Assembly (NCBI RefSeq): GCF_964194025.1
Contig: NC_134468.1
Span: 42,594,001 to 42,658,000 of the forward strand
Length of the DNA stretch: 64,000 nucleotides
Origin: Convolutriloba macropyga
Lineage: Eukaryota
Direction of reading: 5' to 3'
Below the pieces are notes generated by a model, which saw only the letters and a list, made by a program, of their open reading frames with translations, was not told where the DNA came from and searched no databases. This document shows, piece after piece, positions 23,641 through 55,769 of the stretch (position 1 is its first letter; each line of letters opens with the position of its first letter). Both the position numbers and the translations under genes were made by a program.

Positions 23641-24130
23641 TATTGTTGTAGTCTTAATTGAGCTCGCATAACATCATTAGAATCTACTTTGTGAATTTAT
23701 TTGCGGCTGCTTAAGAGGCTATAAGCTACCAACCTACTGGGCTGAAGCAGCATTTTAGGAACTGAGCCTCCTCGTGTCTTTCAAGAGCAGTTCCTCTGGA
23801 GCAATTTGGTTGTTTTTAAGCATTTCCTGGCAAAGAAAGCGAGCTGGGAAAAAAGTAAGCTCACTGAAGTTTAAAATGGAGTTAATGTGTTTGTATGTTC
23901 GTCGGCTTTAAATTTTGATGCTTTAAAAAGTGATATTACATTTAATGTGGTGGTCCGTATCTTTTCTATCTGTATTTCTAAATGTTTCATTTCTTAAAGT
24001 CTTATTCCTAATATCCTGATCTTCTCAAAATCAATCTTTTCAGCAAAAGGCTCCCCTAGCAGAAAAACCGAGTTGAATAAATTAAACCACTTAATGGTAT
24101 CATATATTACTTACAATTTCAGATTAAAGT

Positions 24131-25345
24131 ATGGCATCTAGTGTTGAAACAGATGAACTTACAAGTCCAACTTCGAAGAGTCTCCTATGTACAACAGAGG
24201 GATGTGATTGCCAGTTTAAAAAGAAGAGCCAACTGAGACAGCATTTAATCGATGTACACGGAGACACCGAAGCAATTAAGCCATACGAATGTCAGACATG
24301 CAAGAGAAAATTTCAAACTAACGCACACCTAAAAAGACACGAGAAAGTGCACAATGGTTATAGATGCGAAACCTGCAAGCTCACCTATAATACCTGGTCT
24401 GAATTGAGGAAACACAGGGCACAAATTCACAAACCCTTCTCAATAAGGTGTGAAGCTTGTAGAACTAAGTTTAACTCTAGAACTGATTTGAATTATCATA
24501 AAGAATACTGTGAAGAAAAAGAAAAACTTACTTGTGCAATCTGTAACAAAACGTTTTCCAAGAAAGAAAATTTGAAAAAGCATTTGAAAACTGTGCACCA
24601 TTGTCAAAGAGACTATTCGTGTGTCAATTGCAATAAAGAGTTTTTACACGCGCATAACGTAGTCAACCATTTAGCACTTTGCTTTGCAAGGTCTGAAGAA
24701 GGGCTACTAGATCAAACATCGTTCACAGCAGATAATTTGAAAGAAGTTATTACGTCATCACTAAACGGAGGCATAAGTGATGATAATGAATTCCAGTGCA
24801 ATGGATGTCGGAAAACGTTTAAATACCGGCGCAGTTTATGGCGACACCAAAAGGAAAACTGTCCTATGTTGGAACCGAGCGATCGACTCAAGCAAAGTAA
24901 AAGGTCCCTATTTGAAGAGGTCGATTTAGGGTTCGAGCCCCGGTCACTTCCAATGGTACAAGCTAACGATGGAAACCAAATAAACTGGGACGCGTCGCCT
25001 GTTGTCAAGATAGTGAAGATGAGTCGTGATAGAACTGAAAGTTTAATGGACGAACGCTGCATGTCTTCAGATTGTGAAAGGGATGAGCACCCAAGACACC
25101 TATCTTCGCAAGAGCAATTACAGGATAGTGAAGACCAAAGTTTGCAACAACTTTCACAGCAAAATCAGTTCCAAAAGATGCTCTTTGCAGAGCCTCAAAG
25201 CGTCAATACAGTGCATAATTCATTGACATATGGTGAACCAAGCGCACAGTCTGAACAAAGGAAAGAGATGCAGGATTTGTCCGAAACCGAACTGGTGATG
25301 CCAGAGCTAATCAAATACAAAGAGGGAAATAGGATAATGACATAA
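24131..25345 (+). CDS. C2H2 zinc-finger protein, TFIIIA-like
   Basis: Tandem fingers with FKKKSQL, KPYEC, LKRHEKVHNGYRC, TWSELRKH resemble TFIIIA fingers 4-6; further C2H2/C2HC fingers and a low-complexity C-terminus. Confidence 0.75.
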   Translation: MASSVETDELTSPTSKSLLCTTEGCDCQFKKKSQLRQHLIDVHGDTEAIKPYECQTCKRKFQTNAHLKRHEKVHNGYRCETCKLTYNTWSELRKHRAQIHKPFSIRCEACRTKFNSRTDLNYHKEYCEEKEKLTCAICNKTFSKKENLKKHLKTVHHCQRDYSCVNCNKEFLHAHNVVNHLALCFARSEEGLLDQTSFTADNLKEVITSSLNGGISDDNEFQCNGCRKTFKYRRSLWRHQKENCPMLEPSDRLKQSKRSLFEEVDLGFEPRSLPMVQANDGNQINWDASPVVKIVKMSRDRTESLMDERCMSSDCERDEHPRHLSSQEQLQDSEDQSLQQLSQQNQFQKMLFAEPQSVNTVHNSLTYGEPSAQSEQRKEMQDLSETELVMPELIKYKEGNRIMT

Positions 25346-36567: not shown

Positions 36568-36731
36568 TGTAGTAATAGAGGCTGGCTAGAGGTATAACGG
36601 GGGCGGGGGTGACGGACATTTTTTGCAACATTTTTACAAAATTTGGCGTCCCTACCCGTTGTAAAAACGTCGTTGCAAAAATGTCCCCCCCCCCCCCCCC
36701 GTTGTACCTCTAGTCAGCCTCTATTACTACT
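36568..36731. mobile_element. 164-bp foldback MITE / solo hairpin with Polinton-like (T)GTAGT...ACTACT ends
   Basis: ~70-bp imperfect inverted arms (GTAGTAATAGAGGCTG...CAGCCTCTATTACTAC) around a ~20-nt loop; flanks AGCCTT / GGCCTC (4/6 match). Confidence 0.75.
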
Positions 36732-38305: not shown

Positions 38306-38511
38306 TAGTCGCAATTTTGATATGATTTTTGATCACATGTAAAAAGTAAATTCATGATGTAAAACTGATGTTGACGTTTGTAACCTGAAACTAAAACATG
38401 CTAAATCAACAAGTAAAGCTTAAACAGAAATAGAAAGTCAGAATACGACCAAGGAAAAGCCAACGTCGTGTTCAGAAGAGAGATACTATTTAAAAACTCA
38501 ATAAAACCTTT

Positions 38512-38640
38512 AGTAGTGGATAAAACAAGGGATTCAACCACCAGCAAAATTTGTCCCTTTCTCCTAACGCTAATCGTGCATGTCGAATCGGGCCAAATTT
38601 TACTGTTTGTTGAACCCCCTTGTTTTATCCACTACCATAT
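38512..38640 (+). repeat. Left TIR (itself a hairpin)
   Basis: Reverse complement of ~55398-55525 with ~4 differences; first ~49 nt pair with last ~49 nt. Confidence 0.95.
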
Positions 38641-39125
38641 TCACCACTATAAATACATACTACACGCACAACTTTGTGTACAAGAATGTACATAGCTAGT
38701 ATAATTTATGCAATTCATACACTAATATCCAAAAGTTCTCAAAGCTAGATTTAAGCCTAATTTCATATTTAATATGCCAAACTATACTGAAATAAATCAG
38801 GTTAATCATCTCACAAAGTTTTTTTTCAATAGAATCGGATGGATTGAAAATAACTCAAAATTGCGTAGAACTGGATAATAAGAAACAAGTTTCTTTAAAA
38901 TTTTGACTTTAACCAGGAGACGATTGATCTATGATGTTTAACTGAGTGATTCTATGTACCTGGTTACATTTTTGAGCCGAGTCTTGGGAGGTCTTGTTAA
39001 AAGGTTGACTCGTCTTTACCACGCTACGGCAGTACTGCTCGACCTTTCTAAATGGCAACTGTGGGGGAGGGTGCAACTACAGAATGCTTGAGGGTAGTCC
39101 AATATTGAATCTGTCCAATATTGAA

Positions 39126-39527
39126 TTAAATCTGTCCAATATTGAATGAACAAGCAGATAAATATTCCGGCACATTCACTTCAAACTTGTCCATTGTTTC
39201 CTGATGCTCGTAACTTAGTAGGTCCTTCTTGAACTTGGAGAGGAACAACTGGAAGAGTTCTGTTTTAGTTCGTTTTCCAGTCTCACTTTCATGTTCGGCG
39301 GTGTTGTCGGGTATGCATTTGTTCTCCTTACAAAATGTAATCATTTGATTTGTTAAATTAGTCAACTCGTTTATATTTTCTTCAGATAAAGAAGTGGATG
39401 ATAAAGCTCCAGTTATTAAAGTCTCGTCAAATGACAAAAATTGTTTAAAATTTTTCGCTAGTTCTTGTAGTGAAGTGAAACTCATGATGAATAGCCAAAA
39501 AATGCCGTGGAGAATAAAGGTCCCCAC
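39126..39527 (-). CDS. Polinton hypothetical protein
   Basis: 133-aa ORF (probable ATG at MSFTS) inside the element; no recognised motif. Confidence 0.45.
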   Translation of the reverse strand: MGTFILHGIFWLFIMSFTSLQELAKNFKQFLSFDETLITGALSSTSLSEENINELTNLTNQMITFCKENKCIPDNTAEHESETGKRTKTELFQLFLSKFKKDLLSYEHQETMDKFEVNVPEYLSACSFNIGQI

Positions 39528-39970
39528 GTGGAGAATTATTCTAGAACATTCTTTTTTCTAGAATATTTTGACATGATTTTTAAGTTAAAATTAGTTATCA
39601 TTTCCCAAGTAATTACATGTTTTAAAGTAAAATAATAATTAAATCCTTCTATTAAATTGAATGATTTGTATAATCTATTAAAAATTAAATTAAGATTTTA
39701 ATAAATACTCACTTTACTAGCTAATTTTTAAGGGTGACTTACATTCGAAATTTTCACTTGTTTTCATTCTGTTAGTGGTGGTGGCATTCTTTGTCAATGG
39801 CGGCGGCCATTTTAGCATGACATGCACTTTTCATTCGATCTGCTAAGCAGTGTAATGCGATGTTAAACCAAGCTGGTTGACTTCTTGTACTATTAGTGGT
39901 TGCTAAATATGAAAGAAAGCGAACAATAATAGCACAGTCAAAAACACTGAGATCGGTGGAAACACAGTGA

Positions 39971-40204
39971 TTAGTGTTTTTCTATGTCTTCTTGAATACT
40001 ATACTTATAAACATGCTCTCTGAACTGATTTCTTGTGTGACCATATCTATATCTATGAAGATAAATACATAGTCTACATTTCCTATTTCTAAATCTATAT
40101 AATGATATATGTTTATAAACATTACACATACTGCACGTTAGATATTGATCAGGATCAGAATAATGATATCCCAAATGTTCTATATAATCTTTAACCTTAA
40201 CCAT
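39971..40204 (-). CDS. Small Polinton CxxC...CxxC zinc-ribbon protein
   Basis: 77 aa, CSMC and CRLC; A-rich start context (AAAAATATG); divergent from pPolB. Confidence 0.55.
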   Translation of the reverse strand: MVKVKDYIEHLGYHYSDPDQYLTCSMCNVYKHISLYRFRNRKCRLCIYLHRYRYGHTRNQFREHVYKYSIQEDIEKH

Positions 40205-40345
40205 ATTTTTACATACATAACAAGAATATTCTAATTCTTAACAATTATTACAACATTCTTTCCAAGGTTTATTTATGCATTTATTGCATTTCATTTTCAT
40301 TTTTCGAAAAATTAATTTTTGATTATTTCCCTAAATAAATACATC

Positions 40346-43300
40346 ATGTCTCAATCAACTAATACTAGTGTCATAAACTTCTGCGATGTCTGTAATCTAT
40401 CCTTTGAATCAAAGAAGGGTTTATACAGACACCAATCTTATGATCTCAAACATAAGGAACTATTGGAGAAAATGTTTGAGTCTGAAGAAGAAGAAATCTT
40501 GGAGAGGGTGTATAATCCGGATGAAGATGAATATATTATTAAAACTAGGGCTAAAACTAAAACAGAAACTAAATCAGAAACTGAAACTGAAAACAATATC
40601 TATTCTAAGATTAGGTTTATATGTAAAGAATGTCATGAAGAATTTTGAATTAAAGTAGCTCTAACTACTCATTCATATAGTCACAATCGCATGTATCTAG
40701 AAAACACAGAAGACTTCGATATAAACTCAAGTCAGAACATGAGAGAATTTTATATTACTGATAAAGGTGGGAATTACATTGAAGAGATAGATCAAGCAAC
40801 TGATTACTCTTTAGAAGAAATTAAAAACTGTTACCAGTTTCGTAAAGTTAGGAGTTTTAAATATAAGATCACGGCTGAATGTGATTATAAGAAGAGAACC
40901 AAAGAAGAAGAAGTTAAAACTACTAAAATATTTTTCAATACTGATTATATTAATAATAATGCAATATATGAATATGGTGACTTCAATCGGTGGCTAGATT
41001 TCGAAAAGGAAATATATGAAGGTTATGGTTATGATTTTGAGTTTCTTGGAATAAGAAGTATTCAGTTAAACATTGAACCAAGTAAAGCATCTATTGGTAG
41101 TTATATAGATTTACCTCCTAATCTCAAAAACTCTAAATCGATATTAAATATACGTAGGTATAAATACAACTGCTTACAACTAACTATAACTGCTTGGCTA
41201 CATCCCGCCCCACACCATGCAACTCGAGAAAGTAAGTATGTAGATAAACTAATTGAACCAAGACAACAACATGAAGATGGGTATACACACCTTGTGGTAA
41301 TGGTAAAATAGAATTGTTTGAACAAGTGGATGATTTTAATAAAGATAGAAAAGATGTAAGAATACTAGTTTGGAGTAATGGTCAAATAGAACACTGTGCC
41401 CTAATAAAAAATATAGGAACCTTGTTAGAACGACCAAATAAAAACAACATTAAATATTATTATTGTGATAGGTGTACCTATTGGTTTAACTCACAAATTA
41501 AATATGATAAACACAAATGCAGCACCTCATTCAAACCAGAGATTGTTTGTCCTAAGAAAAAACATATTACTTTTGTAAATGAGCACAAACGTCAGAATAT
41601 AAAAAATATTATAACTGCCGATATAGAATGTTGCATTACCGATGTCACAACTAATGACTGTAAATTTGTAATAGCTGAACATATTCCAATAGCTGTGGGT
41701 TACACCTGGCAAGGTAACTTCAAACACTACTTCGGTCTAGGCTGCATCAAAAGATTTGCTAGAGATCTGTTAGAAATAGAAACTGAGAATATTTTCAAAC
41801 ATAATGAAAAGATGATATTCACAGAAGAAGATAAATTATATCATGAAACTAATAACACTTGTCATATCTGCAGCAAAACATGTATTAATAAAGTAAGAGA
41901 TCACTGTCATGAAACTGGTAAATAAAGAGGACCAGCATGTAAAATATGCAATCTAAGATACAAACAACAAAACTTCATTCCAGTAATTTTCCATAATGGC
42001 TCTGGCTATGACTTCAACCTACTATACAGTGAACTCTTTAAACAGAATAATGATAAAAGAAAAGTAGATAACATACCACTAGCTGCTGGTAAATCTAAGA
42101 TGTTTAGCATTGGTTGTCTCAAATTCTTAGACAGTTATAACTTCTTAGCTATGCCTCTAGATCAAATGGCAAAGATATACGGATGTAAAACTAAAACATT
42201 ATATCCATATGAATACTTTGGTTTAGACTCCTATAATAATCTTATAGGTAATCTAAAATTAGAAGACTTCAAATCCTCTCTCTCGAATAAATTACCAACA
42301 CAAGAAGAAGTCGATATCTTTAATAAAGCCAACAGTCATAAAACTGGAAAAGATCTAACTATAGAGTATTTACAGAATGATGTGGAAATTTTAGACTATT
42401 GCATGAATGAATATGTTAAACTAAGTATGAAAGAATTCAAGCTCAATCCACTACATTACGTTAGTCTCCCGGGTTATAGTTTTGATTGTTGGTTAATGTC
42501 AAGCGGTGTAACATTAGATACATTACAAGATAAACAAATGCTAGATGATTTTGTTGGAGCAAAGAGAGGTGTTATATGTGCAATAATGGGTGATAGATAT
42601 ATAGATAACAGTGATGGTAAGACCATATGGTACATAGACAACCTATATGGTTATGCAATGATGCAAAAGTTACCTTATAAGGACTTTCAGTTTACTACTA
42701 CTACTCTAGATCCACGAACGGACTTCGTCCGTGGCAAGCGAAGCGGTTTCCTCGATACAATATTGAATACTCCAGATGATAGTGATCATGGTTACTATAT
42801 AGTTTGTGATATTGATTATACTAATGAATTTAAAGAGAGAACAGAACAGTTAGCACTAATGCCTAATAAGAGAAAGATAAATGATAATGAATTGGGATAC
42901 CGACAAAGAGAGAAAAGTAAAGCAAGATCCGAGAAATTAATCTTAGACCAAAACAAAAAAACAGAATATATGGTTCATTATAGGATGTTAAAGTTCTATG
43001 CTAAGATGGGAGTAAAAGTAACAAAAATACATAGAGTAATTAAATTTTAACAAGACTACATATGTAGAGATTATATCCAAAACAACACTAACAAAAAAAC
43101 AACAGCTAAAACTGAAGCAGAGAAGGATGTAAGGAAACTAATGAACAACTCACTATATGGAAGAATGTGCATGAATCCCTTACACTTCTTTCAAAGCAAG
43201 TTCTTGCATGATGAAGAAAAGATAATGAAAAGTATAAGTAAACCAACATTTAAGAATATAACTAGATATAAGGATTATAGCCAAATTGAATATATAAAGA

Positions 43301-44019
43301 AAAAAATAGAATATGACTCTCCAGCATATGTAGGTGTTACTATATTAGAATTAAGTAATTTACACATGTATGATGTATTCTATAATATTCTACAACCATC
43401 TCTCAAAAATCTACAACTCCATTATATGGATACTGATAGTTTTGTATTAAGTTTTACTGAAGGTAATGTCGACAATGAACACATGGATTTAAGTAATCTA
43501 GAGCCCCCTATCAAAACAAATAATAAAGTGCCTGGTAATTTCAAACATGAAATGGGAAGTAAGATCATAGAAGAGTTTGTGGCCTTAACACCAAAGACAT
43601 ATAGCTTTAAAGATTATCCCAACAAAACTGAAGAGAAAGGAATAAAGAATTGTAACAATGCTAAACATGAGGAGTATTATAATGCACTAATGTATAACAC
43701 AGAGAGAAGTGTAGATGAATGTAGAATACAAAAAGTTGGTGATAACATGACAACAACAAAAACAAGTAAGATAAGTCTAAACACATTTAATGATAAAAAA
43801 TTTTATGTAAATAATATTAAAAGCTATCCTCATGATGAGAATCTATATCTATTCAAAGGAGATTTAATAAAAATGATCCGCCAAGCATCAGTGAAACTGC
43901 TTCGCAGATCATTAGATGGAGACAAAGACCTACTGGTTAATAATATTCTAGAACTAACCATTAATGATGATAGAAAGTTGATTGAAGTTGCTATTATATT
44001 ATATAATGAGCTTTGTTAA
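40346..44019 (+). pseudogene. Protein-primed family B DNA polymerase with N-terminal C2H2 fingers and HNH/EndoVII-like insert; disrupted
   Basis: ExoI ADIEC, RDHCHETGK*RGPAC..CN insert, ExoII FHNGSGYDF, ExoIII YLQNDV, Pol A YID-NLYGYAM, Pol B KLMNNSLYG, Pol C YMDTDS; in-frame stops at 40646, 41923, 43048 and a break near 41280-41314. Confidence 0.93.
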
Positions 44020-44035
44020 TTTTTATAACAAATAA

Positions 44036-44356
44036 TTATAGACCTAATTCATTCATTACTTCCATATGGTTGGTAGTTAGTATATTATAAATCATTATCT
44101 GAGCCATATATTTTTCCATAATGTCTCCCATGATTGTATTCTTATGTAGTGTAGCTCCAGCTATTATATTTTTTTTATATTCTAGAAATTTTATTATCTT
44201 CCCAGCCGCATCTACATATTTAGAATAAATTGAAATTCTTAAATCATCATGATTTGGTTCCTTAATATGATCAATAAACTCATCTATAGTATTACAATGT
44301 CTTTTACAAGCTAAACATTTTTTTAGATTAAGAGAGAAGCTGTTTTCATTATCCAT
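44036..44356 (-). CDS. Polinton hypothetical protein with CxxC...H...H zinc-finger-like motif
   Basis: 106-aa intact ORF, CLACKRHC..F..HIKEPNH; AAAAAATG start. Confidence 0.6.
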   Translation of the reverse strand: MDNENSFSLNLKKCLACKRHCNTIDEFIDHIKEPNHDDLRISIYSKYVDAAGKIIKFLEYKKNIIAGATLHKNTIMGDIMEKYMAQIMIYNILTTNHMEVMNELGL

Positions 44357-44392
44357 TTTTTACTCTTATTATAATTTTTCAATACATAAAAA

Positions 44393-46254
44393 ATGACTAA
44401 ACTAGATAAACTTATAGAATTAAACAATCTAGACAAACAAAACAGAAGAAATAGATTAGAAGATAAATTAAAACAACAAGAATATTATTGTGAAATAGAA
44501 GAGTTATTCGATCCTTTAACTAAAACTTTAAATGAAAACACTGAACGGAATCTAGCATTAGGTGAACAAACATTAAGAGCAATAGATTGGCAAAATCAAG
44601 AGTTAGATAAACAAACTAAGATGATCGAGCAAGCTGGTTCCCAGTTTAATGAAACTGCTTCCAAGATTGGTGAAACGTTAAAGGGGACTCAAGATATAGC
44701 ACCAGTTTTTGTAGATACAAAGACAGCCAAACTTCTTCATGACATGGGGGCTCAAACTAATCCTCAATTAAAATTAGAACTCATAGATTTACCTACTAGG
44801 AGATATAAAATGAATGGTGTTGATATAACTCTAGAGAAGAGTGCATTTTTAGTTAGGGATAATGTATATGAGTTTTCAGAAGGATTTACTGATTTTCTTA
44901 CTAAATCAATTGTAACATATGATGATAATATTGAGGAAGATGAAAACAAAATTAAAAGGTTTTTAAAGGATATTAGATATGATTTAGTAAAGGGGATAAG
45001 AAAAGCGGTAGATATAGAACAATAAAACGTATAATGGAGGTAAAAGATGACGTATTTGGCAGGGGTTTAAATAGCAACCCAAACCCAAATAGTTTAATAG
45101 AAAGATTAGAATTATTAATACTGGAAACAAAAGCTGGTCATGATGGATTATATGATAAAATGCTAGATGTATCTAAGCAACTATTATCTATGAATATTAT
45201 TAATCAAGACCAACAAGATAATTTTGTTTTTAACTACGGTAAAATAGGTGAAATCATGACTACGTCCATGAGCAAGCTCACAACTTCGTTGATCAGTGGA
45301 CCTGCTTTGCAGATAGGTGAAACCATGACTACATCCAAAAAAAATGTGGAAAAACAACAAAAACAACAACAACAACATCAACAACAACTAGCTAAAGAAG
45401 TAATCAGTCCTCAAATAACAAAGTTTAAAAGACAAAGAATAATACCACTATATAAAGATGAAACATGGTCAGCTGATTTAATTGATAAGTCATTTCTAAG
45501 TAAATACAATAATAATTATAAGTTTATATTAACAGTTATAGATATATTCACAAAATATGCATCGGCTATTCCATTAAAGAATAAATCTGGTTTATCTATA
45601 ACTAATGGTTTTAAAACAATCCTATCAGAAGGACGAAAACCAGAAAAGTTATGGGTAGATAGAGGTAGTGAGTATTACAATAAAACATTTATATCTTTAC
45701 TTAAAGAATATGAAACCGGCAAAGCCGCTTCAGGGATATAGCTATATTCTACTTATAGTGATTTAAAGGCTGTGTTTATAGAGAGATTCAATAGAACAAT
45801 ATTACATATAATAAATAAACCAATGTTCATCAATGGTGATGGTAATTGGGTAAATATATTAAATGATGCGGTCATAACATATAACAATAACATTCATTCA
45901 ACAACTAATATGACACCAGTTGATGCTTCTAATAATCCTGATAATGTTAAATACACTTTTAGTTTTAAGAATATTAAACCCAAACTTAACGTTGGTGATT
46001 ATGTTAGAAATGTAGATAAACGTAATATCTTCTCTAAAGGTTACGCTTCTAATTGGAATAGAGAATTGGTTAAAGTTAATGAAGTTCTAAAAACACAACC
46101 ACCAACTTATAAAATAGGAGATATTAATGGTGAGAAAATAGAAGGTAAATATTACGAACAGGAATTATTAAAATCTGAGTTTGATTTTGAATCTAATAAT
46201 AAAGTTTTAGAATCATTAAATATATTTCTTAAAATTAATAATGACAAGAAATAG
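44393..46254 (+). pseudogene. Retroviral-type (rve, DDE) integrase, probably fused to an upstream coiled-coil/core-like domain; one frameshift (~44990) and one stop (45739)
   Basis: WSADLID, VIDIFTKY, LWVDRGSEYYN, IERFNRTI catalytic motifs; C-terminal VGDYVR..KGY..NW..YYEQEL domain; upstream LFDPLTK and LIERLELL..KAG segments. Confidence 0.9.
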
Positions 46255-46951
46255 ATTCAATCAAGCTAAACATAAATCAACATCAACATCAACAAACAAC
46301 TTAACACTAAGTAAGGCTCCTGGGTTATTCCTAGAAGATAATGATGATATTGATATGAAGGATACCTATAAAATTACAAATGTTCATCCTCCTAGAGATG
46401 AAAAAGATGTTGTTAATAAAGAGTATTGTGACAATAACTTATTATCCTCTTCTAATAAAATAGACATTTTAAGTAGAAACATAACTGAACTAAGAAAGGG
46501 TGACTTTGATAAAGTTACAACTAAAACGTTACAACTAAATGAAACACAAGTTAATGAAGAACTAATTAATGGGTTTATTGAATCAACAAATGAAGTCAGA
46601 AATACTGTTAAGTTTTGTAATAAAGTTGCTGCAGATACTATCTCTAAATATAATTATTTGAAGCAAGAATTTGATAAGATTAAGTTTAATCAGAATATAA
46701 CTAACATACACTTAGATGAAATGTTTACTAACGGTCTGAGAGAAATGAAAGAATACAATAAATCTCTTAGAGGTGTTATAGTACAATATATAATTGCTAT
46801 ACTTTTACAAACTAAGTTACTTGATAATAAAGAGAAAGACAGACTTGAGATGCATTATAGTTTTAATCGAGAAGATATAATGAAAGAAATAGAAAGAATT
46901 TTTACTAATGAAAATCAGCAAAGCAATGACCAATCCAACAGCACCGAGTGA
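46241..46951 (+). CDS. Polinton protein with fibre-repeat-like motif
   Basis: DIDMKDTYKITNVHPPRDEKDVVNKEYCD resembles the D-A/V-x-N-K-x-Y-V-D fibre repeat; intact 236-aa ORF. Confidence 0.55.
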   Translation: MTRNRFNQAKHKSTSTSTNNLTLSKAPGLFLEDNDDIDMKDTYKITNVHPPRDEKDVVNKEYCDNNLLSSSNKIDILSRNITELRKGDFDKVTTKTLQLNETQVNEELINGFIESTNEVRNTVKFCNKVAADTISKYNYLKQEFDKIKFNQNITNIHLDEMFTNGLREMKEYNKSLRGVIVQYIIAILLQTKLLDNKEKDRLEMHYSFNREDIMKEIERIFTNENQQSNDQSNSTE

Positions 46952-47474
46952 GAGATTACTATATCCAGATTTGTCATCAGTATCAGAAAGATTAATAAAC
47001 GAAAAGATACAAGCTAATAATAAATTCAACAATAATATTAACATTATAAAAGATATTAGAAATTATTATAAAACTGAAACTAATAACTATAATAAGAAGT
47101 TAAGTAGATATAAGAATTATATTAACATAGCTGAGATAACAGAAATAGTATTATCATCAATAGCAACAACTGCAACAACAACATCAGTTTCATTAACATG
47201 TATAGGGTTAGCTTATTCTATACCAACAGCTTTTGCTACAGCAACTGTTTGTGGTTCATTATCAAAAACAATTAATACTAAAATTAGAAATAAAATTATA
47301 AAGTATTCACAAATGTATATTTCAAGTAAACAGTTTAGTGATAAATTTAATAAACTATATACTAAATCAATAAATGATAATAAAATAGATAATGATGAGT
47401 ATATTGATTTTGTTAAGTTATATGAGGATTATAAGAAGAATAAGAAAAACAGGCTGAGTATTTTTTTAGATTAA
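46926..47474 (+). CDS. Polinton helical/hydrophobic protein with N-terminal PTAP and LYPDL motifs
   Basis: MTNPTAPSERLLYPDL, coiled coil, then a ~45-aa uncharged stretch (IVLSSIATT...TVCGSL). Confidence 0.7.
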   Translation: MTNPTAPSERLLYPDLSSVSERLINEKIQANNKFNNNINIIKDIRNYYKTETNNYNKKLSRYKNYINIAEITEIVLSSIATTATTTSVSLTCIGLAYSIPTAFATATVCGSLSKTINTKIRNKIIKYSQMYISSKQFSDKFNKLYTKSINDNKIDNDEYIDFVKLYEDYKKNKKNRLSIFLD

Positions 47475-47608
47475 AGATATTAGTGCTTAGTAATAACAAT
47501 GTTTTTAGTTATAATAATATTAGTATTAATATTTATCGATAAATATATAATCATAATCTTAGTTATAATCATAATCATAAACATAATATAATCATAATAT
47601 AATCATAA

Positions 47609-48064
47609 TCATAAACATAATATAATCATAATTATAATCAAATAATTATCTTTTTTTGTACCTAAGTATAACCCTCTTCCTTTTTGTACTAATTTTATAC
47701 CTTCACCAGTAGTTGCAAATTTAATTAAATCAGGTTTGGCTGCTAAAGCAGCTCTAGGGTTTCTAGATGCAGCTGCACTTCCTATTTTACTTGCTATTTC
47801 TAATGCTCTTACTGGATTATGAGCTGCCTTCTTTCCAAAGTTAACTGTAGCCCTAACAACACTTTTAAAGAAATCTTTAAGTACTTCTGCTTCTATTGTT
47901 GCATCAGATACTGTCATTGATTTATTCCTTCTACATAAAACACAATTACCTTTTAACATCTTAGTTTCTTTTGAAGTAATAGCTCCTCTTATATTAACAG
48001 AACCACTGTAATGTCTACCTCCAACACAATATGAATTAGTTTTGAACTTATTTAAAAGACTCAT
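47609..48064 (-). CDS. Putative virion core/membrane-active protein (zinc ribbon + amphipathic helix + GxG motifs)
   Basis: YC....H...GNCVLCRRNKS zinc-ribbon-like N-terminus; LKDFFKSVVRATVNFGKKAA amphipathic helix; GEGI and KGRGLYL. Confidence 0.65.
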   Translation of the reverse strand: MSLLNKFKTNSYCVGGRHYSGSVNIRGAITSKETKMLKGNCVLCRRNKSMTVSDATIEAEVLKDFFKSVVRATVNFGKKAAHNPVRALEIASKIGSAAASRNPRAALAAKPDLIKFATTGEGIKLVQKGRGLYLGTKKDNYLIIIMIILCL

Positions 48065-48082
48065 TTCTATATATAAAAAATA

Positions 48083-48244
48083 ATGGAAGTTAAAAAGTAT
48101 AATCCCTTTGTTGTTATTAAGCCTAAGCCTACGGGTTCCACCCGCGAGCGAAGCTCGAAGACTGAGCCTAAGCCTAAGGTTAAGCCCAAGCCCAAGGTTA
48201 AGCTTGAAGCTAGAGGCTTGGCTCTAGAGAATAAAAAAAATTAG
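48083..48244 (+). CDS. Small basic KP-repeat peptide (possibly frameshifted)
   Basis: MEVKKYNPFVVIKPKP...EPKPKVKPKPKVK; TATATAAAAAATAATG start context; below ORF-track cutoff. Confidence 0.35.
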   Translation: MEVKKYNPFVVIKPKPTGSTRERSSKTEPKPKVKPKPKVKLEARGLALENKKN

Positions 48245-48496
48245 ACATTATTTATGCTAAAGGTTTTGTTAATACTAATAAGAAATAGTTAGGTATTAAC
48301 AAGAGTAACAATTAGAGCTGACTAGCTATAAATATAAGTATAAGTATATGGTTATGTATAAGTATTAGTATATAATTATAACAATAACTATATTATACTA
48401 TAATTATAAATTATCGCTAGAGTTATATCTAAAATTATAATTATCGCTAGAGTTATATCTATGATATACCTTCACCTTATATCTATGATATACCTT

Positions 48497-49901
48497 CTAC
48501 GAGATTATATCAACCATCTTAATACCATCACTATTCACACTAATAACCTTCCTAGTTAATACTAATGCATGACATATAACATCTGCAACTGCAGCACTAA
48601 ATTTAAAATTAAGTTGTATTGGTTGTTGTTGTACACACCATGATATATCTCTAATTTCTATATTACCATCATTGGCAACTGCACCAGGATTAGCATTAAC
48701 TCTATATAGAGCTCTATCATTATTATTCCTTTTTAATTTTAGTTTAAATCCTAAACCATATATAAGCTTTTCTAAATCATTTACGAAACCAAATAGATCA
48801 CTTTGATATCGAGTATCAAATACATATATTCTATAACTACTCTTGAATGTTCTATGATTTATATATGGTTTTTTATTATGTGGTAGCCCATTATAGTCTT
48901 TATTAAAGCTAACAATCTCTTTAAAAGCATCATTATAATTATTAGTTCCATAATTAATATTTATTCTATCCTCGGGATAAAAACCCACTACCAATCTTAC
49001 AATAACATTCAGTAACATTCATTACATCAAATGTACTTGCATCATGAGTTAGCTCATTAACATTATTATTTTCAAAACCAACTATAATATATTGTGGTCT
49101 TTCCATACCACTTTCCATACCTAGATCAAACAAGAAGTTAGTAGCATTGGGTACATTCTTATAAAATGTCTTCCTTTCATAATAACTAAAGTCTACATTA
49201 TTCTTTTTATTCAAAACCCTTTTGCACAATAATTCTATTGTCATTACTAGGATCAATACTAGGTACACAACATGATATATCTCTAATTTCTATATTACCA
49301 TCATTGGCAACTGCACCAGGTTTAGCATTAACTCTATATAGAGCTCTATCATTATTATTCCTTTTTAATATTAGTTTAAATCCTAAACCATATATAATCT
49401 TTTCTAAATCATTTACGAAACCAAATAGATCACTCATTCTTAATCATCATATACATATGTCCTCGTTGTGCAGCAATATGGTCACCTCTAAGTTGACTAT
49501 CTCTATTGCCCTGATTTCTAACAAAACCACTCATATTCATCACCAGTACTAGTTAATAATTTATATATCAATAGATTGGGATGACAATGATCTATATATT
49601 CAATAGTCCTACCACCACTAGTCTCAAGTTTAATTGAACTGAATAATGCCATCATACCATAATTAACTAATCTAATATCAGCAAATATCATTAGCAAATA
49701 CACCACCAGCATAATCTGATACAACTCTATCTCTAGATTTGAATCACGCAAATTTAGGTGACTCTCTTCTCTATTGAGTATGATATTAATATTGGTATTA
49801 ACCGTATTCATTGTTGCTAGATTATTAGGTTTATATTTTATAATCTTACTTTTATGTATATCATTATTATAACCATAAGTTGTATCCAAATTAAAATCCA
49901 T
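48497..49901 (-). pseudogene. Major capsid protein (double jelly-roll), frameshifted, with a 172-bp internal duplication
   Basis: Collinear fragments: LVNYGMMALFSSIKL..IEYID; LFGFVNDLEKIIYGLGFKLIL.RNNND; PQYIIVGF..STFD; YPED; IYVFDTRYQ; PIQLNF..HALVL. These match the Polinton/adintovirus MCP pattern. Confidence 0.82.
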
Positions 49902-49917
49902 TTTTATTAGATAAAAA

Positions 49918-50759
49918 ATGAGAGACAATTTAATGTTAAGAGAACTACAAAATATACACGAAGCTTTAACTGAAACTAAAGAAGAGTATACACTTAACTT
50001 TAGAATGATAAAACTAACAGAAAAGTTTAACTTTAGTGAACCTATACTTAATACAACAAAATTAGGTTCAATTAGATTATCTGTTTATAATTCGGTGTTT
50101 AATGTGAATAGGAGAAATAATCAATTCTTATATGCTAGTACTGTTATAGAAGATGATGAAGCTTTACCTCGGGTTCTCAGCTCTGTTCCTAACCTTAACC
50201 CTATCTCTACCTCAAGCCCAAACATTAAATCTATACTTAACCATAATTATAAAGGAATCCCGTTGCTATATTCAACTATTACACCGGGAGCATATGAGTT
50301 AACTGACATAGCAGAATTAATAAAAGAAGAAATTGATGGTAATGTTGTAATAGAACCTGATAAGAATACGATGAAATGTTTAATGGAAATAAAACAAGGA
50401 GCACTCAGCTTTGATATAGAAAACTCACTAGCCTCATTCTAGGATTTGGAAAAATAATTTATAAAAAAGGTAGATATAAATCTCAGAAAATTATTGATAT
50501 TATGGGTTTTAGTACTATTAACATTCATTGTAATGTGATATCTGGAGCTAAAGATAATGGTAAAGATACAGACATACTATATACTTTTAATCTAACTGAA
50601 CCACCAGGTTACTTGATAAATATAATACCAACTATTATCTTGTATCAAAATGTAAATAAAGATAGAATAGAATATATAGAATTTCATATTAAAGATGAGC
50701 ATGGAAGACCTATAGACTTTAATGGTGATGTATTAAGTTTTACTTTACATTTGATTTAG
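49918..50759 (+). pseudogene. Minor capsid protein (penton, single jelly-roll), one frameshift ~50440
   Basis: YNSVFNV..NNQF, ITPGAYEL, LGF, INIHCNVISG, PPGYLI..P..Y, DEHGRPIDFNG motifs. Confidence 0.85.
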
Positions 50760-51005
50760 ACTTATACTTATACTTACACTTAGACTTATCTGTGAAGCAG
50801 GTTCCCTGATACTTATACCTATAGTTATTTGCGAAGCAGGTTCCCGATACTTAGACTTGTACTTAGACTTACACTTATCTGCGAAGCGGGTTCCCTGATA
50901 CTTAAACTTATACTTATCTGCGAATCAGGTTCCCGATACTTAGACTTGTACTTAGACTTACACTTATCTGCGAAGCGGGTTCCCTGATACTTAAACTTAA
51001 ACTAA
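50760..51005. repeat. Convergent intergenic array: hexamer repeats alternating with 25-bp GCGAAGC-hairpin units
   Basis: (ACTTAG/ACTTAT)n interleaved with 5 copies of TATCTGCGAAGC(A/G)GGTTCCC(T)GATA. Confidence 0.8.
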
Positions 51006-51006
51006 A

Positions 51007-52395
51007 CTACAAAACTCTCCGATCCCAATTAATTCTTAGTTTACCATTAACATTTTTATTTTTAGTTATATCAATGACAATATAATTATAAGGCTCTTTC
51101 CATACCTTATTACATATATTAGCAAAATCGTTATAACTAAGTTCAACATTATTAAAGAAATCTTGATATATAGATATGAGGACTTTACCTCTCTGTTCAA
51201 ATAAAATAAATAGATTACAGTTCCCTCTAACACTCTGCCTATCCAGAGAGAACAGGTTTTGATTAAGATATATCATATTACAGTTATTATGTCTACCTCT
51301 ACAAAAGTATTCATTAATAACTGGTTCTTTGGCTCTAACATCATCGAATATCATTAGTTTCTTTAAGTCTTTGGGTAGTTTATCGGGAGATGGCAAATCT
51401 TTTATATCTTTAATAAATTCAACATCTGCTTTTGGGTTTATTCTTTCTATACCATGGTACTGATCACCAGTAGGTCCAATGATGTATAGCTTATCAAAGT
51501 ATATACTAGCTAGAATTAGTTTTTTCAATAAGAATGTCTTACCACATTCACTAGGACCAGATATTATACATCTAAAGTTATCTGGGAATGCGGCTTCAGT
51601 AATTATATCATCATCATTTAACCATAAATATAGATCATCATTTATGTTTACAAATATCGGTGAAACCGCTTCACGGATATTATTAGTAGGACTATTACTA
51701 ATGCTATTACTATTTCTATCCCTATTAGATTTACTCCTTTGATATTTTTCATCAAATAGATATATAAAATTATCATTATCATTATCATTATCATTATCAA
51801 TGACATTATCCTTATCATTAACATTATCATTATCATTAACATTATCATTATCATTACTAGTAAAGCTACTTCGTAGATCATTAACATTATCATTAACATT
51901 ATCCTTATCTTTATCACCACCTCTACTACAACTTAAACAAGAACACTCATTATATATTCCTGGATATTTACATTGATTAACTAGAATATTCAAAGCACTT
52001 TTAATTCTAAATCCTCTATCAATAAGATAGATCATATATAAACAATAAGCCCCACAATAAGATTCATCATATTGTTGTATTCCCTCATTAGAGCCTAGAT
52101 CAACATATTCTTCTAAAAATAAAGGTGGAGTTTCTACACCAAAACTATCAAAGTAATATGTTGGACCACCTTCTCTTCTTATAACTAAAACGCAATGTGT
52201 ACCTTCAGTTGGATGTAGATTTACAATAATGTTAGAGTTAGGTTCACTTACCATTTCTGGTTTATCATCTCTCATTACAATCTCAATAGGTGTTAGACTT
52301 ATATCTTTACCTATATCTTTTATTCTGATACCACTCATAGCATTATTATCAATATTAAATTTATTATTGAATTCCACAAAAGTTAGGATGAGCAT
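51007..52395 (-). CDS. Adenain-like cysteine protease fused via a DN-repeat linker to an A32/FtsK-like packaging ATPase
   Basis: Protease GTH, YFDSFG, IQ..SYCGAYC; ATPase Walker A GPSECGKT, Walker B LMIFDD, RGRH, LNQ, VRGN; uninterrupted 462-aa ORF. Confidence 0.9.
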   Translation of the reverse strand: MLILTFVEFNNKFNIDNNAMSGIRIKDIGKDISLTPIEIVMRDDKPEMVSEPNSNIIVNLHPTEGTHCVLVIRREGGPTYYFDSFGVETPPLFLEEYVDLGSNEGIQQYDESYCGAYCLYMIYLIDRGFRIKSALNILVNQCKYPGIYNECSCLSCSRGGDKDKDNVNDNVNDLRSSFTSNDNDNVNDNDNVNDKDNVIDNDNDNDNDNFIYLFDEKYQRSKSNRDRNSNSISNSPTNNIREAVSPIFVNINDDLYLWLNDDDIITEAAFPDNFRCIISGPSECGKTFLLKKLILASIYFDKLYIIGPTGDQYHGIERINPKADVEFIKDIKDLPSPDKLPKDLKKLMIFDDVRAKEPVINEYFCRGRHNNCNMIYLNQNLFSLDRQSVRGNCNLFILFEQRGKVLISIYQDFFNNVELSYNDFANICNKVWKEPYNYIVIDITKNKNVNGKLRINWDRRVL

Positions 52396-52479
52396 TTTTA
52401 TATAATAAATTTATTAAATCTAAGTCTAATTATAAGTCTAAGTCTAAATCTAAATCAAATCTATATTTATTATATAAAA

Positions 52480-54230
52480 ATTGAAACAGGTAGTGCAGTT
52501 TTTGTTTTTATTATTATAATTGGCATTTGTTATATAATATATGATTCAATACCAAGTAAATATACAAAACTAGAAGAAAGCTTTGGTGGATTTATGAATA
52601 GGAGTCTAGTTAGATTTGAATATGAAAAGTCACCACTACATACTTTTGTTTATGGTGGAACTGGAACGGGTAAAACATATTTTATTAGACAATACTTATA
52701 GTTATACTTAGACCATGATCAAGTTCAAAATCAAGTTCAAGATCAAGTTCAACATCAAGTTCAAGATCAAGATCAAGTTCAAGATCAAGTTCAAGATCAG
52801 GTTCAAGATCAAGTTCAACATCAAGTTCAAGATCAAGATCAAGTTCAAGATCAAGTTCAAGATCAAGTTCAACATCAAGTTCAAGATCAAGTTCAAGATC
52901 AAGACCAAAGGTCCATAGTTATAGTTTGTAAAGATGACAGAGACTGGATAGATCCTGAGTCTAATAAGTTTTATACTGGGTTTAATAAATGTGATATAAA
53001 TATGATCACAAAAAATAATATGCATAAGTTTCAAAATTGTGTAATAGTACTTGATGATATGGGTGACAGGTTAAATAAGGATATAGCTTATTATATTGCT
53101 GAAGGTAGACATTATAATTTTCAAATGATTGTAATGTGTCATAAACCAGCTCAAATAATTAATACAGCAAGAATGAGTTGTGATACTATTTACCTAACAA
53201 CTTATAATGGACCTGACCTATTTAAAAACTTTAATGAGATATATAAATTTGAAATGACTTCAATAAAATAATTAGTGAATTAAATAGTAACTATTATAAT
53301 TGTACAGATGGAATGTCAGATGAACTTCGCTATGGTATAATTAAATATAATAAAAAGGAAAATACTTTTATTATTATTAGTAATAATAGAACAATGATAT
53401 ATGATTCAAGAGTTGGTTTCCTTGATTTAAAAGCTCTTAGTTTAAAAGATGATTTAGAAAGAGAAGATATAAATAAACTTATAGCATATATGATGATTAA
53501 TGCAACAGATAGAAATGTTATTAATCATGATAATTATCAGTTTTATTTTAATAAACTTCTTACTTTAAAAAATATTAAAATTCAGAATGATGTTTTAACA
53601 AAAGAGATGATTAAGGGAAATGGGTATGAAAATTTTATCAAATATTGGTGGAATTATAGGCACAGGTTTATTTATATTTAATTGTTTTTATCCTGATTCA
53701 ATATCAAGAAATGCTGGAACTGTAGCAATGGGAGCAAGTACAATGTTGAGTAGAGTAAATACATTAGTTAATGTTGGATATGGAGAAGAGTTGGAAGGTG
53801 AAACACGAACAAAGTCCGATTCTTCGATCTGCGAAGCAGGTTCCATGATCCAAGAGGAATATATCGATCGGGGAAGCAGTAATACTGATCAGGGAAGCAG
53901 TTATACTGTGTAACTGTGACTTCGTATCAGCGTAACTGTGACTTCGTCAATGAAGAGATGGGAATTTTGAATAGAAAGGGAGGAAAGTTTTTAAACAAAC
54001 TATATATAAATAATGAAGAATTTAGAGAAGAGATTATAAATTTTGTTAAAGATAAAAAAGACTTAGACCTTGATTTGATCTTAGATAAGAGATGTAAAAC
54101 TAATACACTCAATACTTTAGGAAATAAATATTTAGCAGAGTTTATCACATCTAAAGATAATACTAAAGATTTAATTGAAATCATGGCTAAATATTATCCA
54201 CAAAGTTTGTACACCGATTCTACAGCATAG
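52480..54230 (+). pseudogene. Second A32-like ATPase with N-terminal hydrophobic anchor, DQVQ repeat insert and long C-terminal extension; disrupted
   Basis: Manual translation from 52480 (ATT in the ATG position after TTATATAAAA): ETGSAVFVFIIIIGICYIIY...VYGGTGTGKT, stop at 52699, (DQVQ)n, in frame with VIVLDDMG..EGRH..MCH..TARMS (53002-53271); downstream fragments linked by frameshifts (inferred). Confidence 0.75.
52717..52908. repeat. 12-bp/6-bp tandem repeat GATCAAGTTCAA (encodes DQVQ)
   Basis: Directly visible; preserves the ATPase reading frame. Confidence 0.95.
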
Positions 54231-54347
54231 CTAATATTATCTGCGAATTTGCAAAACAACTCAGTTGAGCAGTTTGGTAAACCATGAACAAAGTTCGTTC
54301 GAGAACCACGAGCAAAGCCCAATCACTGATAATTTTATCTATTAAAA

Positions 54348-55199
54348 ATGCTTTTACAATGTTTAGAGTGTAACTATAAATGTGGAAACATTGCTGTTTT
54401 AAAATATTATTATGAATCATTTCATAAAGATAAAACTGATAAATGCATGTGTGGTAATATAATATTAAGTGGCATTTGTGCTAATGATTTTTCCCCATGG
54501 GGTTGTTCTTTAAAAAATGAATCTAGTTCTAGTTCTAATTCTAGTTCTAACTCTAGTTCTAATTCTAATTCTAATTCTAGTTCTAACCCTAGTTCTAGTT
54601 CTAACCCTAATTCTAACTCTAGTTCTAACCCTAGTTCTAGTTCTAGTTCTAGTTCTGGTTCTGGTTCTAACCCCAGTTCTAGCTCTAGTTCTGGTTCTGG
54701 TTCTATCTATGACTATAACTCTTACTCAGATCCTAACCCTAACCCTAACCTTATCCCTAACCCTAACTTTAACCCCAGCTCAGAAGTATTAACTAGATGC
54801 TGTAATAAGTGTAATTATATAAAACCACTAAATAATTTTGATGAGGGTAAGTAAACATGTAGAAGTTGTACTTCAGCTAAAGTTAATTGTCCATATTGTA
54901 CTTCTGTTGTGAGATATGATGGGATATGGGCTCATGTAAAGAAACAACATCCAGATATAGAATTGACTAGAGGATTTAGTAGAAATATAACTGATCGGTG
55001 TAACCGCTTCGCGGATAAAACAATTAATCCTAGTTGCCCAAGTCCTAGAGCTGTAAGTCCTTTAGTTAATAACCAAACAGAGGAAAATTGTTCATGTAAA
55101 TACTATAATTTTGTATCATTTCTTATTAATAATGGAATAAATATAGAAAAAATAAAAGAAAATATAAATTTATTGAAAAGTATAGATAATTTGAAATAA
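54348..55199 (+). pseudogene. Cys-rich multi-zinc-finger protein with S/N/P hexamer-repeat linker; one in-frame stop at 54852
   Basis: CLEC, CMC, CNKC, then read-through TCRSC..CPYC...HVKKQH in the same frame as 54909-55199. Confidence 0.65.
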
Positions 55200-55397
55200 A
55201 AAGTATAAAAAATAAAAAATGTCAAAAAAGAAGGATTCACTCTTTAAGAGCGAAAAAGAGCGATCTTTTCTACTGGGGATCACTCCGAATAAGAGTGAAT
55301 CACTCTTAAAGAGTGAAATGTAAATTTTGCTTTAATTTTTTGATTTTTTGTTTTTTTTTTGATTTTAATTGATTTTTTTATTGAATTTAGAGCTAAT

Positions 55398-55525
55398 ATA
55401 TAGTAGTGGATAAAACAAGGGATTCAACAAACAGTAAAATTTGGCCCGATTCGACATGCGCGATTAGCGTTAGGAGAAAGGGACAAATTTTGCTGGTGGT
55501 TGAATCCCTTGTTTTATCCACTACT
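55398..55525 (-). repeat. Right TIR (itself a hairpin AGTAGT...ACTACT, 55402-55525)
   Basis: Inverted copy of left TIR; followed by TSD ACCTTT. Confidence 0.95.
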
Positions 55526-55769
55526 ACCTTTGATTTCATAATGAAAAAGTTTTGAAGAAGGTTAACATAAGATGACATGCCCTAGTTCAACTCCAACTAT
55601 TATCTTGCAAGTTCTGGCAAGATTTATGCCTTTGATCGTTAGCTTGCAAGATCGTGCCACGAATTTTTCAAGACTCAATCTTGCTTATGATTAGGCACAA
55701 TCTTGCGACACAACAGTCGGTTTTTGACTATTGTTAATTGTTGATAGTATGCTTTAAACATGCTTTCAC

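Follow-up and report, generated by a model that had tools for sequence, protein, structure and literature searches.

The stretch of DNA analysed here (the window) covers 64,000 nucleotides of the Convolutriloba macropyga genome (contig NC_134468.1, positions 42,594,001 to 42,658,000) and contains a Polinton/Maverick element of 17,014 bp at 38512..55525, with ends that read AGTAGT...ACTACT. The insertion is flanked by a 6-bp target-site duplication, ACCTTT (left 38506..38511, right 55526..55531), and bounded by terminal inverted repeats of about 115 nt with 96% identity and AGT-type ends. The left repeat (38512..38625, plus strand) and the right repeat (55412..55525, minus strand) each form their own fold-back hairpin, with z values of -8.9 and -13.4, respectively. 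The termini as a whole (38512-38640 and 55398-55525) are imperfect palindromes of about 125 nt, one long hairpin each, and these hairpins may be relevant to the priming of replication. A further fold-back of 162 nt with GTAGT...ACTAC ends (36569-36730, z -13.8) lies 1.8 kb to the left of the Polinton and is unlike its termini in sequence; it is perhaps a lone terminus or a miniature derivative of a related element.

In its length, its inverted repeats with AGT ends and its 6-bp duplication, the element resembles known Polintons/Mavericks (adintoviruses, Polintoviricetes), which it also matches in gene content: a protein-primed DNA polymerase B, an RVE integrase, a major capsid protein of the double-jelly-roll type, an adenain-type protease and an A32/FtsK-type ATPase (PMC4028283, PMC8097293). 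A Pfam scan over 25 frames of the window assigned the polymerase, integrase and capsid pieces inside the Polinton. The polymerase region lies in pieces at 40691..44019 on the plus strand (PF03175, E 2.9e-10, above cut-off), and within it there is a weak match to Endonuclease VII (41275-41925, plus strand, E 9e-4). The integrase is present as two pieces at 45400..46254 on the plus strand (PF00665, E 2.2e-7, with 31.5 bits where the cut-off is 32.6) and is 38-45% identical to that of another Polinton family of this genome (the second family). The major capsid protein gene, also in pieces, occupies 48497..49901 on the minus strand (PF21738, E 3e-6, at the cut-off, and 6e-4). Two pieces at 49918..50759 (plus strand) form a candidate gene for the minor capsid protein; it had no profile match in the Pfam scan and is proposed from its position and its homology to the second family's pre-MCP gene. 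A candidate core protein, and possible substrate of the protease, is encoded at 44393..45240 on the plus strand; its [VI]-[FY]-G-R-G-L motif is present in three of four sister stretches, and L-E-G-N-G is found at a comparable place in an ORF of like size in the second family. This copy is a decayed element, and most of its other genes are broken.

On the minus strand, at 51007..52395, a stop-free frame of 462 aa joins a protease, a linker and an ATPase. As a first-pass annotation of the sequence had stated, this is the longest ORF within the Polinton; among ATG-initiated ORFs the runner-up has 316 aa. The protease domain, of the adenain/clan CE type, comprises residues 1-143 (51967..52395), with catalytic residues H67 (52195-52197), D83 (52147-52149), Q108 (52072-52074) and C114 (52054-52056). 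This set aligns with that of 16 relatives and is retained in the sister copies (H67 in 28 of 29, the other three in all 29). Both the fold and the order of the catalytic residues are those of the adenovirus protease (adenain, peptidase family C5). A predicted model of residues 1-156 (pLDDT 87.9) matched the adenovirus proteinase structures 1nln and 1avp (Foldseek E 9e-5, TM 0.58), along with other clan CE proteases; in BFVD the top match was an adintovirus adenain, and in the ESM Atlas the protease resembled Peptidase_C5 clusters at 0.94-0.96. There was no Pfam match for the protease half of the window ORF. The first-pass annotation had recognized the H/D/Q/C set and confined the domain to the first ~125 aa; the set holds, and the folded domain extends further, to about residue 143-151.

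At the end of the protease domain there is a four-cysteine cluster (C142...C151-x-C153-x2-C156; 51928..51972, minus strand), which went unmentioned in that annotation. It is kept in 27-29 of 29 copies, its CxCxxC portion occurs in 74 of the 80 database chains that have both domains, and it is possibly a metal site. Stand-alone relatives have no counterpart, as their proteases stop short of it. The residues that follow the cluster vary by subfamily, with SRGG, NDKV and SKDL as the observed versions.

The linker, residues 157-255 (51631..51927, minus strand), is rich in Asn (24%), Asp (18%) and Ser (12%) and is predicted to be disordered; its length is hypervariable among copies while its frame is kept. 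The A32/FtsK-HerA-type ATPase domain follows as residues 256-462 (51010..51630, minus strand), with a Walker A motif GPSECGKT (residues 280-287, 51535-51558), a Walker B motif MIFDD (residues 348-352, 51340-51354), RGRH (residues 366-369, 51289-51300) and NQ (residues 378-379). The layout described in the first-pass annotation, a (DN)n/Ser-Asn linker leading to an A32-type ATPase, is thus borne out. Key residues of the ATPase are retained across the copies: G285 and K286 in 29 of 29, D351 and D352 in 28 of 29, and R366, R368 and Q379 in 29 of 29. For residues 250-462, comparison with the ESM Atlas gave a resemblance of 0.98 to Pox_A32 clusters. With the Pox_A32 profile (PF04665) the window copy scores 19.7 bits, below the cut-off of 22.8 (E 6e-4), while 13 of 20 aligned relatives do match, the best with E 2.3e-7. 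Packaging ATPases in BFVD match the fused ATPase with E 1.5e-4 from a weak model, and the full-length model (pTM 0.42, with pLDDT below 50 for residues 379-462) is uninformative on contact between the domains. A search of PDB structures with this full-length model returned proteases for all of its top matches, and a sequence search of solved structures gave nothing useful.

Methionines of the fused ORF are at residues 1, 20, 41, 48, 121, 348 and 374, and none of the 26 ATGs found from residue 122 up to Walker A is in frame. From these positions it follows that there is no in-frame start from the protease core to Walker B, in agreement with the earlier annotation. A start of its own for the ATPase was considered and rejected: among 19 short ATPase proteins examined in databases, the starts are scattered and many lie past Walker A, a pattern expected from gene calls on broken copies. 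The possibility that the linker is an intron was rejected too, because the window copy's linker holds no acceptor-like tract.

Since the window copy is decayed and most of its other genes are broken, the fused frame might have been produced by decay of, or an assembly error in, this one copy. A six-frame search of the animal's own genome (1.18 Gb), in which 92 of 16,400 candidates were scored, gave 154 matches; once stops are read through, each of the 150 listed belongs to a frame of 428-552 codons. Among 30 sister loci fetched from this first sample, 16 read stop-free across protease, linker and ATPase. This sample favours copies that are in frame, and a second was therefore picked on protease DNA alone, by taking the 30 loci that best matched a 301-nt piece of the protease (40 of 1,621 candidates scored). 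In the 28 of these loci that have both anchors, the linker spans 369-1,302 nt and is different in every one. With the window copy and a locus whose anchor is uncertain excluded, the frame is kept across the linker in 20 of 26 copies (p 7e-6 against an expectation of one in three); three loci were set aside in this sample, one in frame, one shifted and one without the ATPase inside the locus. Of 27 copies in the second sample, 12 carry frameshifts inside the ATPase domain, so that the shifted linkers do not exceed ordinary decay. A non-coding repeat tract that lies behind the fusion gene (50757..51006) served as the control; in 24 copies it is distributed 6/11/7 among the three frames. Slippage of a hexamer repeat preserves the frame by itself, though for 8 of the 22 linkers in frame the difference in length from that of the window is an odd multiple of 3.

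Selection was assessed from pN/pS over 29 of the 30 copies, one being left out for a frameshifted stretch, with variants counted as shared when present in at least three copies. For shared variants the ratio is 0.18 in the protease and 0.11 in the ATPase, compared with 0.83 and 0.87 for private variants (Fisher p 7e-5 and 2e-5); for the linker the values are 0.62 and 0.71. These ratios indicate that the protease and ATPase domains are both under purifying selection. Together with the catalytic residues of the two enzymes, kept in 27-29 of 29 copies, they argue that, for lineages to be active, the two enzymes and their common frame were required, and the sequence of the linker was not. The first-pass annotation had named a stop and a separate ATG in the linker of sister copies as the sign that the fusion arose by decay. 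Only two copies of the second sample, both frameshifted, show this arrangement of a stop and then ATGs that are in frame with the ATPase, and there the +1 frame of the repeat supplies the ATGs. The fusion is genuine, family-wide and under selection, and decay of the window copy as its source is ruled out by the read-through sisters, the frame keeping and the selection. With 16 of 30 loci stop-free, 80 of 121 examined database chains carrying both domains and selection acting on both halves, we regard an artefact of decay or assembly as having a negligible probability.

The same layout extends beyond the closest sister loci to an older, more decayed subfamily. Thirty loci of this subfamily were fetched with a divergent ATPase query, and the protease lies upstream on the same strand in 27 of them. 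In 14 of these 27 the two are in frame (two duplicates among these), and four loci (L039, L044, L045 and L065) have stop-free frames from the end of the protease through the linker into the ATPase. The older-subfamily linker also holds a second cysteine-rich motif. Median identity to the window in these loci (L037-L066) is 60% for the ATPase and 72% for the protease, an order that is the reverse of that reported for Polintons of C. briggsae, with 66% for the protease and 81% for the ATPase. In the second Polinton family of the same genome, by comparison, the two genes are separate, with a stand-alone protease of 134 aa and a stand-alone ATPase of 239 aa about 4 kb apart; the ATPase was found in five of six copies looked at, and the ends of these elements were not delimited. 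All the main genes of this family (L117-L130) are on one strand. In a tree with 16 other proteases, rooted at the midpoint, seven fused proteases form one branch with support of 100/99. The separate genes of the second family, the single branch and the presence of the fusion in the older subfamily therefore lead us to conclude that the fusion is derived, arose once and lasted.

Distant full-length proteases in a library of 50%-identity clusters have 124-161 aa (best 150 of 343 clusters). No fusion beyond this lineage was found among these 150 protease clusters or the best 120 of 213 near-length matches, nor in three longer relatives of a stand-alone protease, viral and metagenome contigs, and phage records, a set with weak cover of eukaryotic genomes. 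Within searches of that reach, the fusion is found in one host lineage only. Two database chains join a related protease to other proteins, following an RVE integrase in one (P0391, 415 aa) and another Polinton ORF in the other (P0392, 281 aa); these may be read-through in single copies.

A second, divergent A32-like ATPase, overlooked in the first-pass annotation, lies beside the fusion at 52480..54230 on the plus strand and had to be excluded as the true packaging motor. In the window copy it has no ATG start, one stop and frameshifts, while in three sisters (L031-L033) it has 495-554 aa. It carries an N-terminal hydrophobic helix (Kyte-Doolittle 2.95) and a long extension at the C-terminus, and an Asp/Gln repeat is inserted behind Walker A. 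The two ATPase genes are arranged head to head around an AT-rich gap of 84 nt (52396..52479), a candidate two-way promoter; in 28 of 30 loci the gap is 75-204 nt, with one odd value and one locus not placed. An additional membrane-anchored ATPase of this kind sets the family apart from known Polintons, and those stretches of the second Polinton family that were read contain none.

If this second ATPase were the one that packages DNA, the fused ATPase might instead be free to assist the protease, perhaps by forming a ring that places it on DNA or passes substrates to it in the manner of ATP-dependent proteases. The second ATPase keeps its Walker A, Walker B and arginine motifs, is under purifying selection (pN/pS 0.17-0.37 for shared variants) and has the better Pox_A32 score (E 4.5e-6 against 6e-4 for the fused ATPase); in 24 of the 30 older-subfamily loci, too, it is placed head to head with the fused gene. 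The comparison with lone ATPases points the other way. For the lone ATPase of the second family, E is 1e-17 to 1e-20 against the fused ATPase and 0.002 against the second one; that of an environmental virus contig matches the fused domain with E 1e-12, the values for the second ATPase being 0.002-0.013 over both comparisons. In a 12-row tree with no outgroup root, it is the second ATPase that sits on a long branch. On these grounds the fused domain is likely to be the packaging ATPase and the membrane-anchored protein an extra paralogue, and we consider it very improbable that their roles are exchanged.

The consensus of the adenovirus protease is (M/I/L)XGG or (M/I/L)XGXG, with known departures (PMC4246237). 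The first-pass annotation had proposed that the protease releases itself at CSRGG, just before the linker. This sequence is indeed present, at residues 156-160, with SRGG at 51916..51927 on the minus strand; it is specific to a subfamily and not conserved in the family, it has Ser in place of M/I/L at P4, and both glycines are found in 19 of 29 copies. Among the 80 two-domain chains, no linker has an (M/L/I)xGG or (M/L/I)xGxG site, 21 have GG and 13 have RGG, and 59 have neither GG nor GxG; no conserved cleavage site between the domains was found in this set. Self-cleavage at CSRGG is therefore unsupported. Adenovirus protease also cuts at non-consensus sites, and so cleavage elsewhere in the chain may still occur.

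The fused gene could encode a polyprotein, a single chain that fixes when and in what amount two late proteins are made and that is afterwards divided, either by its own protease at a non-consensus site or by a host protease acting in the disordered linker. The tolerance of the adenovirus enzyme, the exposure of a disordered linker of 100-250 residues and the SRGG sequence in 19 of 29 near copies are all in keeping with this, and Polinton polymerases provide a parallel in the internal protease that they hold, which is proposed to free the terminal protein (PMC11161782). It is harder to reconcile with a glycine site that is not conserved, with the 59 of 80 chains lacking both GG and GxG, with residues after the cysteine cluster that depend on the subfamily, and with a linker whose pN/pS is 0.62. 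We judge a polyprotein to be rather unlikely, if a serious candidate.

To the reading that we favour we give about an even chance: a single frame is selected, the chain stays whole, and motor subunits carry a tethered protease to the vertex where DNA enters. A physical coupling of packaging and maturation had already been suggested in the first-pass annotation. The product would be left uncleaved, with the protease and the packaging-type ATPase remaining one chain. ATPases of this class form rings of five or six subunits. If the fused ATPase subunits assemble into such a ring, each would bring one protease, at a fixed 1:1 dose, and the long flexible linker would deliver it to the DNA-entry vertex; glycine sites of core proteins could then be cut during or just after packaging. 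Consensus-like glycine motifs recur in the candidate core proteins of both families, at a frequency whose chance level was not assessed. We infer the uncleaved tether because of the conserved frame, the missing site and the precedent of adenovirus, where a particle holds 7 to 50 copies of the protease, the protease is taken up in a step of its own, defective in ts1, and maturation and packaging are connected (PMC4246237). The fuller picture, in which a one-chain ring motor with tethered proteases operates alongside another ATPase of its class that is anchored in the membrane, is possible and we put it forward tentatively.

Conservation of the linker in composition alone suits a tolerated join as well as a working tether, and the decayed copies of the older subfamily, in which only 14 of 27 are still in frame, weigh against the tether. 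The fusion could then be a tolerated accident of one ancestor, in which a stop between neighbouring genes was lost and the domains work as before with no new coupling. After such an event frame keeping would be forced, the ATPase having no start of its own, whether or not the tether helps. The single origin and restriction to one host lineage fit this account, and chance joins do occur, as the read-through chains P0391 and P0392 suggest; possible hexon-adenain frameshift fusions have also been mentioned (Buck et al., PMC11071296). Against it, the join has outlasted about 40% divergence of the ATPase, and the four-cysteine cluster at the junction is conserved. Linker expansions with ATG repeats in the +1 frame would in addition offer an easy return to a separate start, and none has become fixed in the sampled subfamilies. 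A tolerated accident without new coupling thus seems to us unlikely.

A tether of this kind would have a counterpart in function, and not in construction, in adenovirus with its IVa2 / L1-52/55k packaging apparatus, where maturation is linked to packaging and each particle holds few protease molecules (PMC4246237). Adenovirus achieves the coupling with separate genes, by means of DNA and a peptide cofactor, whereas in the window Polinton the link would be covalent. In vertebrate Mavericks the protease and the ATPase belong to two modules on opposite strands (PMC8097293), in place of the one ORF found here. The possible 'Hexain' hexon-adenain frameshift fusions of adintoviruses (PMC11071296) and P0391 likewise join adenain to another viral protein. 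Those frameshifts are hypothetical, P0391 is a single case, and the protease is C-terminal in them; here it forms a constitutive, in-frame, N-terminal fusion to the ATPase that is fixed in two subfamilies.

A P-loop ATPase and a protease are also combined in one chain in Lon and FtsH, a likeness of layout only. These enzymes have AAA+ and not FtsK/HerA ATPases, serine or metallo and not cysteine proteases, the opposite order of domains and a short, structured junction.

The literature consulted comprised parts of PMC3671162, PMC11161782, PMC8502044, PMC4028283 (with four supplements, by term search), PMC8097293, PMC10301787, PMC12220804, PMC10328495, PMC11071296 and PMC4246237, and parts of bioRxiv 2023.08.22.554363, 2026.10.13.758929 and 2026.06.19.733378. 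In these portions no description was found of a protease-ATPase fusion or of two ATPases in a Polinton, the founding papers, repeat-library entries and figures lying outside this scope; the nearest published remark is one sentence on the possible hexon-adenain frameshift fusions (PMC11071296). The protease-ATPase fusion is apparently undescribed, while both of its parts are well known.

How a maturation protease enters the capsid, and when it does so relative to packaging, is only partly understood even in adenovirus. A natural fusion that is under selection implies that the protease and the motor can act at the same place and in a 1:1 dose, and the fused ORF brings self-cleavage, ring formation and activation by DNA within reach of assays on one protein. 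If the proposed one-chain machine is real, it would be a new form of coupling between packaging and maturation among double-jelly-roll viruses. It would also be a strong hint that these elements made real, possibly membrane-associated, particles; Polinton particles are described as unobserved so far in the sections consulted of bioRxiv 2023.08.22.554363 and 2026.06.19.733378. For annotation the fusion is a trap, as calling by the best domain hit would label such elements as lacking either the protease or the ATPase.

Two minor features of the window may be added. Several start codons of the element, for example those at 52395, 49918, 49901, 44393 and 54348, have a T-rich stretch and then a TA..AAAA word just 5' of them, a recurrence whose chance level was not assessed. 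Outside the Polinton, the window contains frames of host type, with a C2H2 zinc-finger array at 24128-25345 and a leucine-rich-repeat frame at 12548-14899, both on the plus strand.
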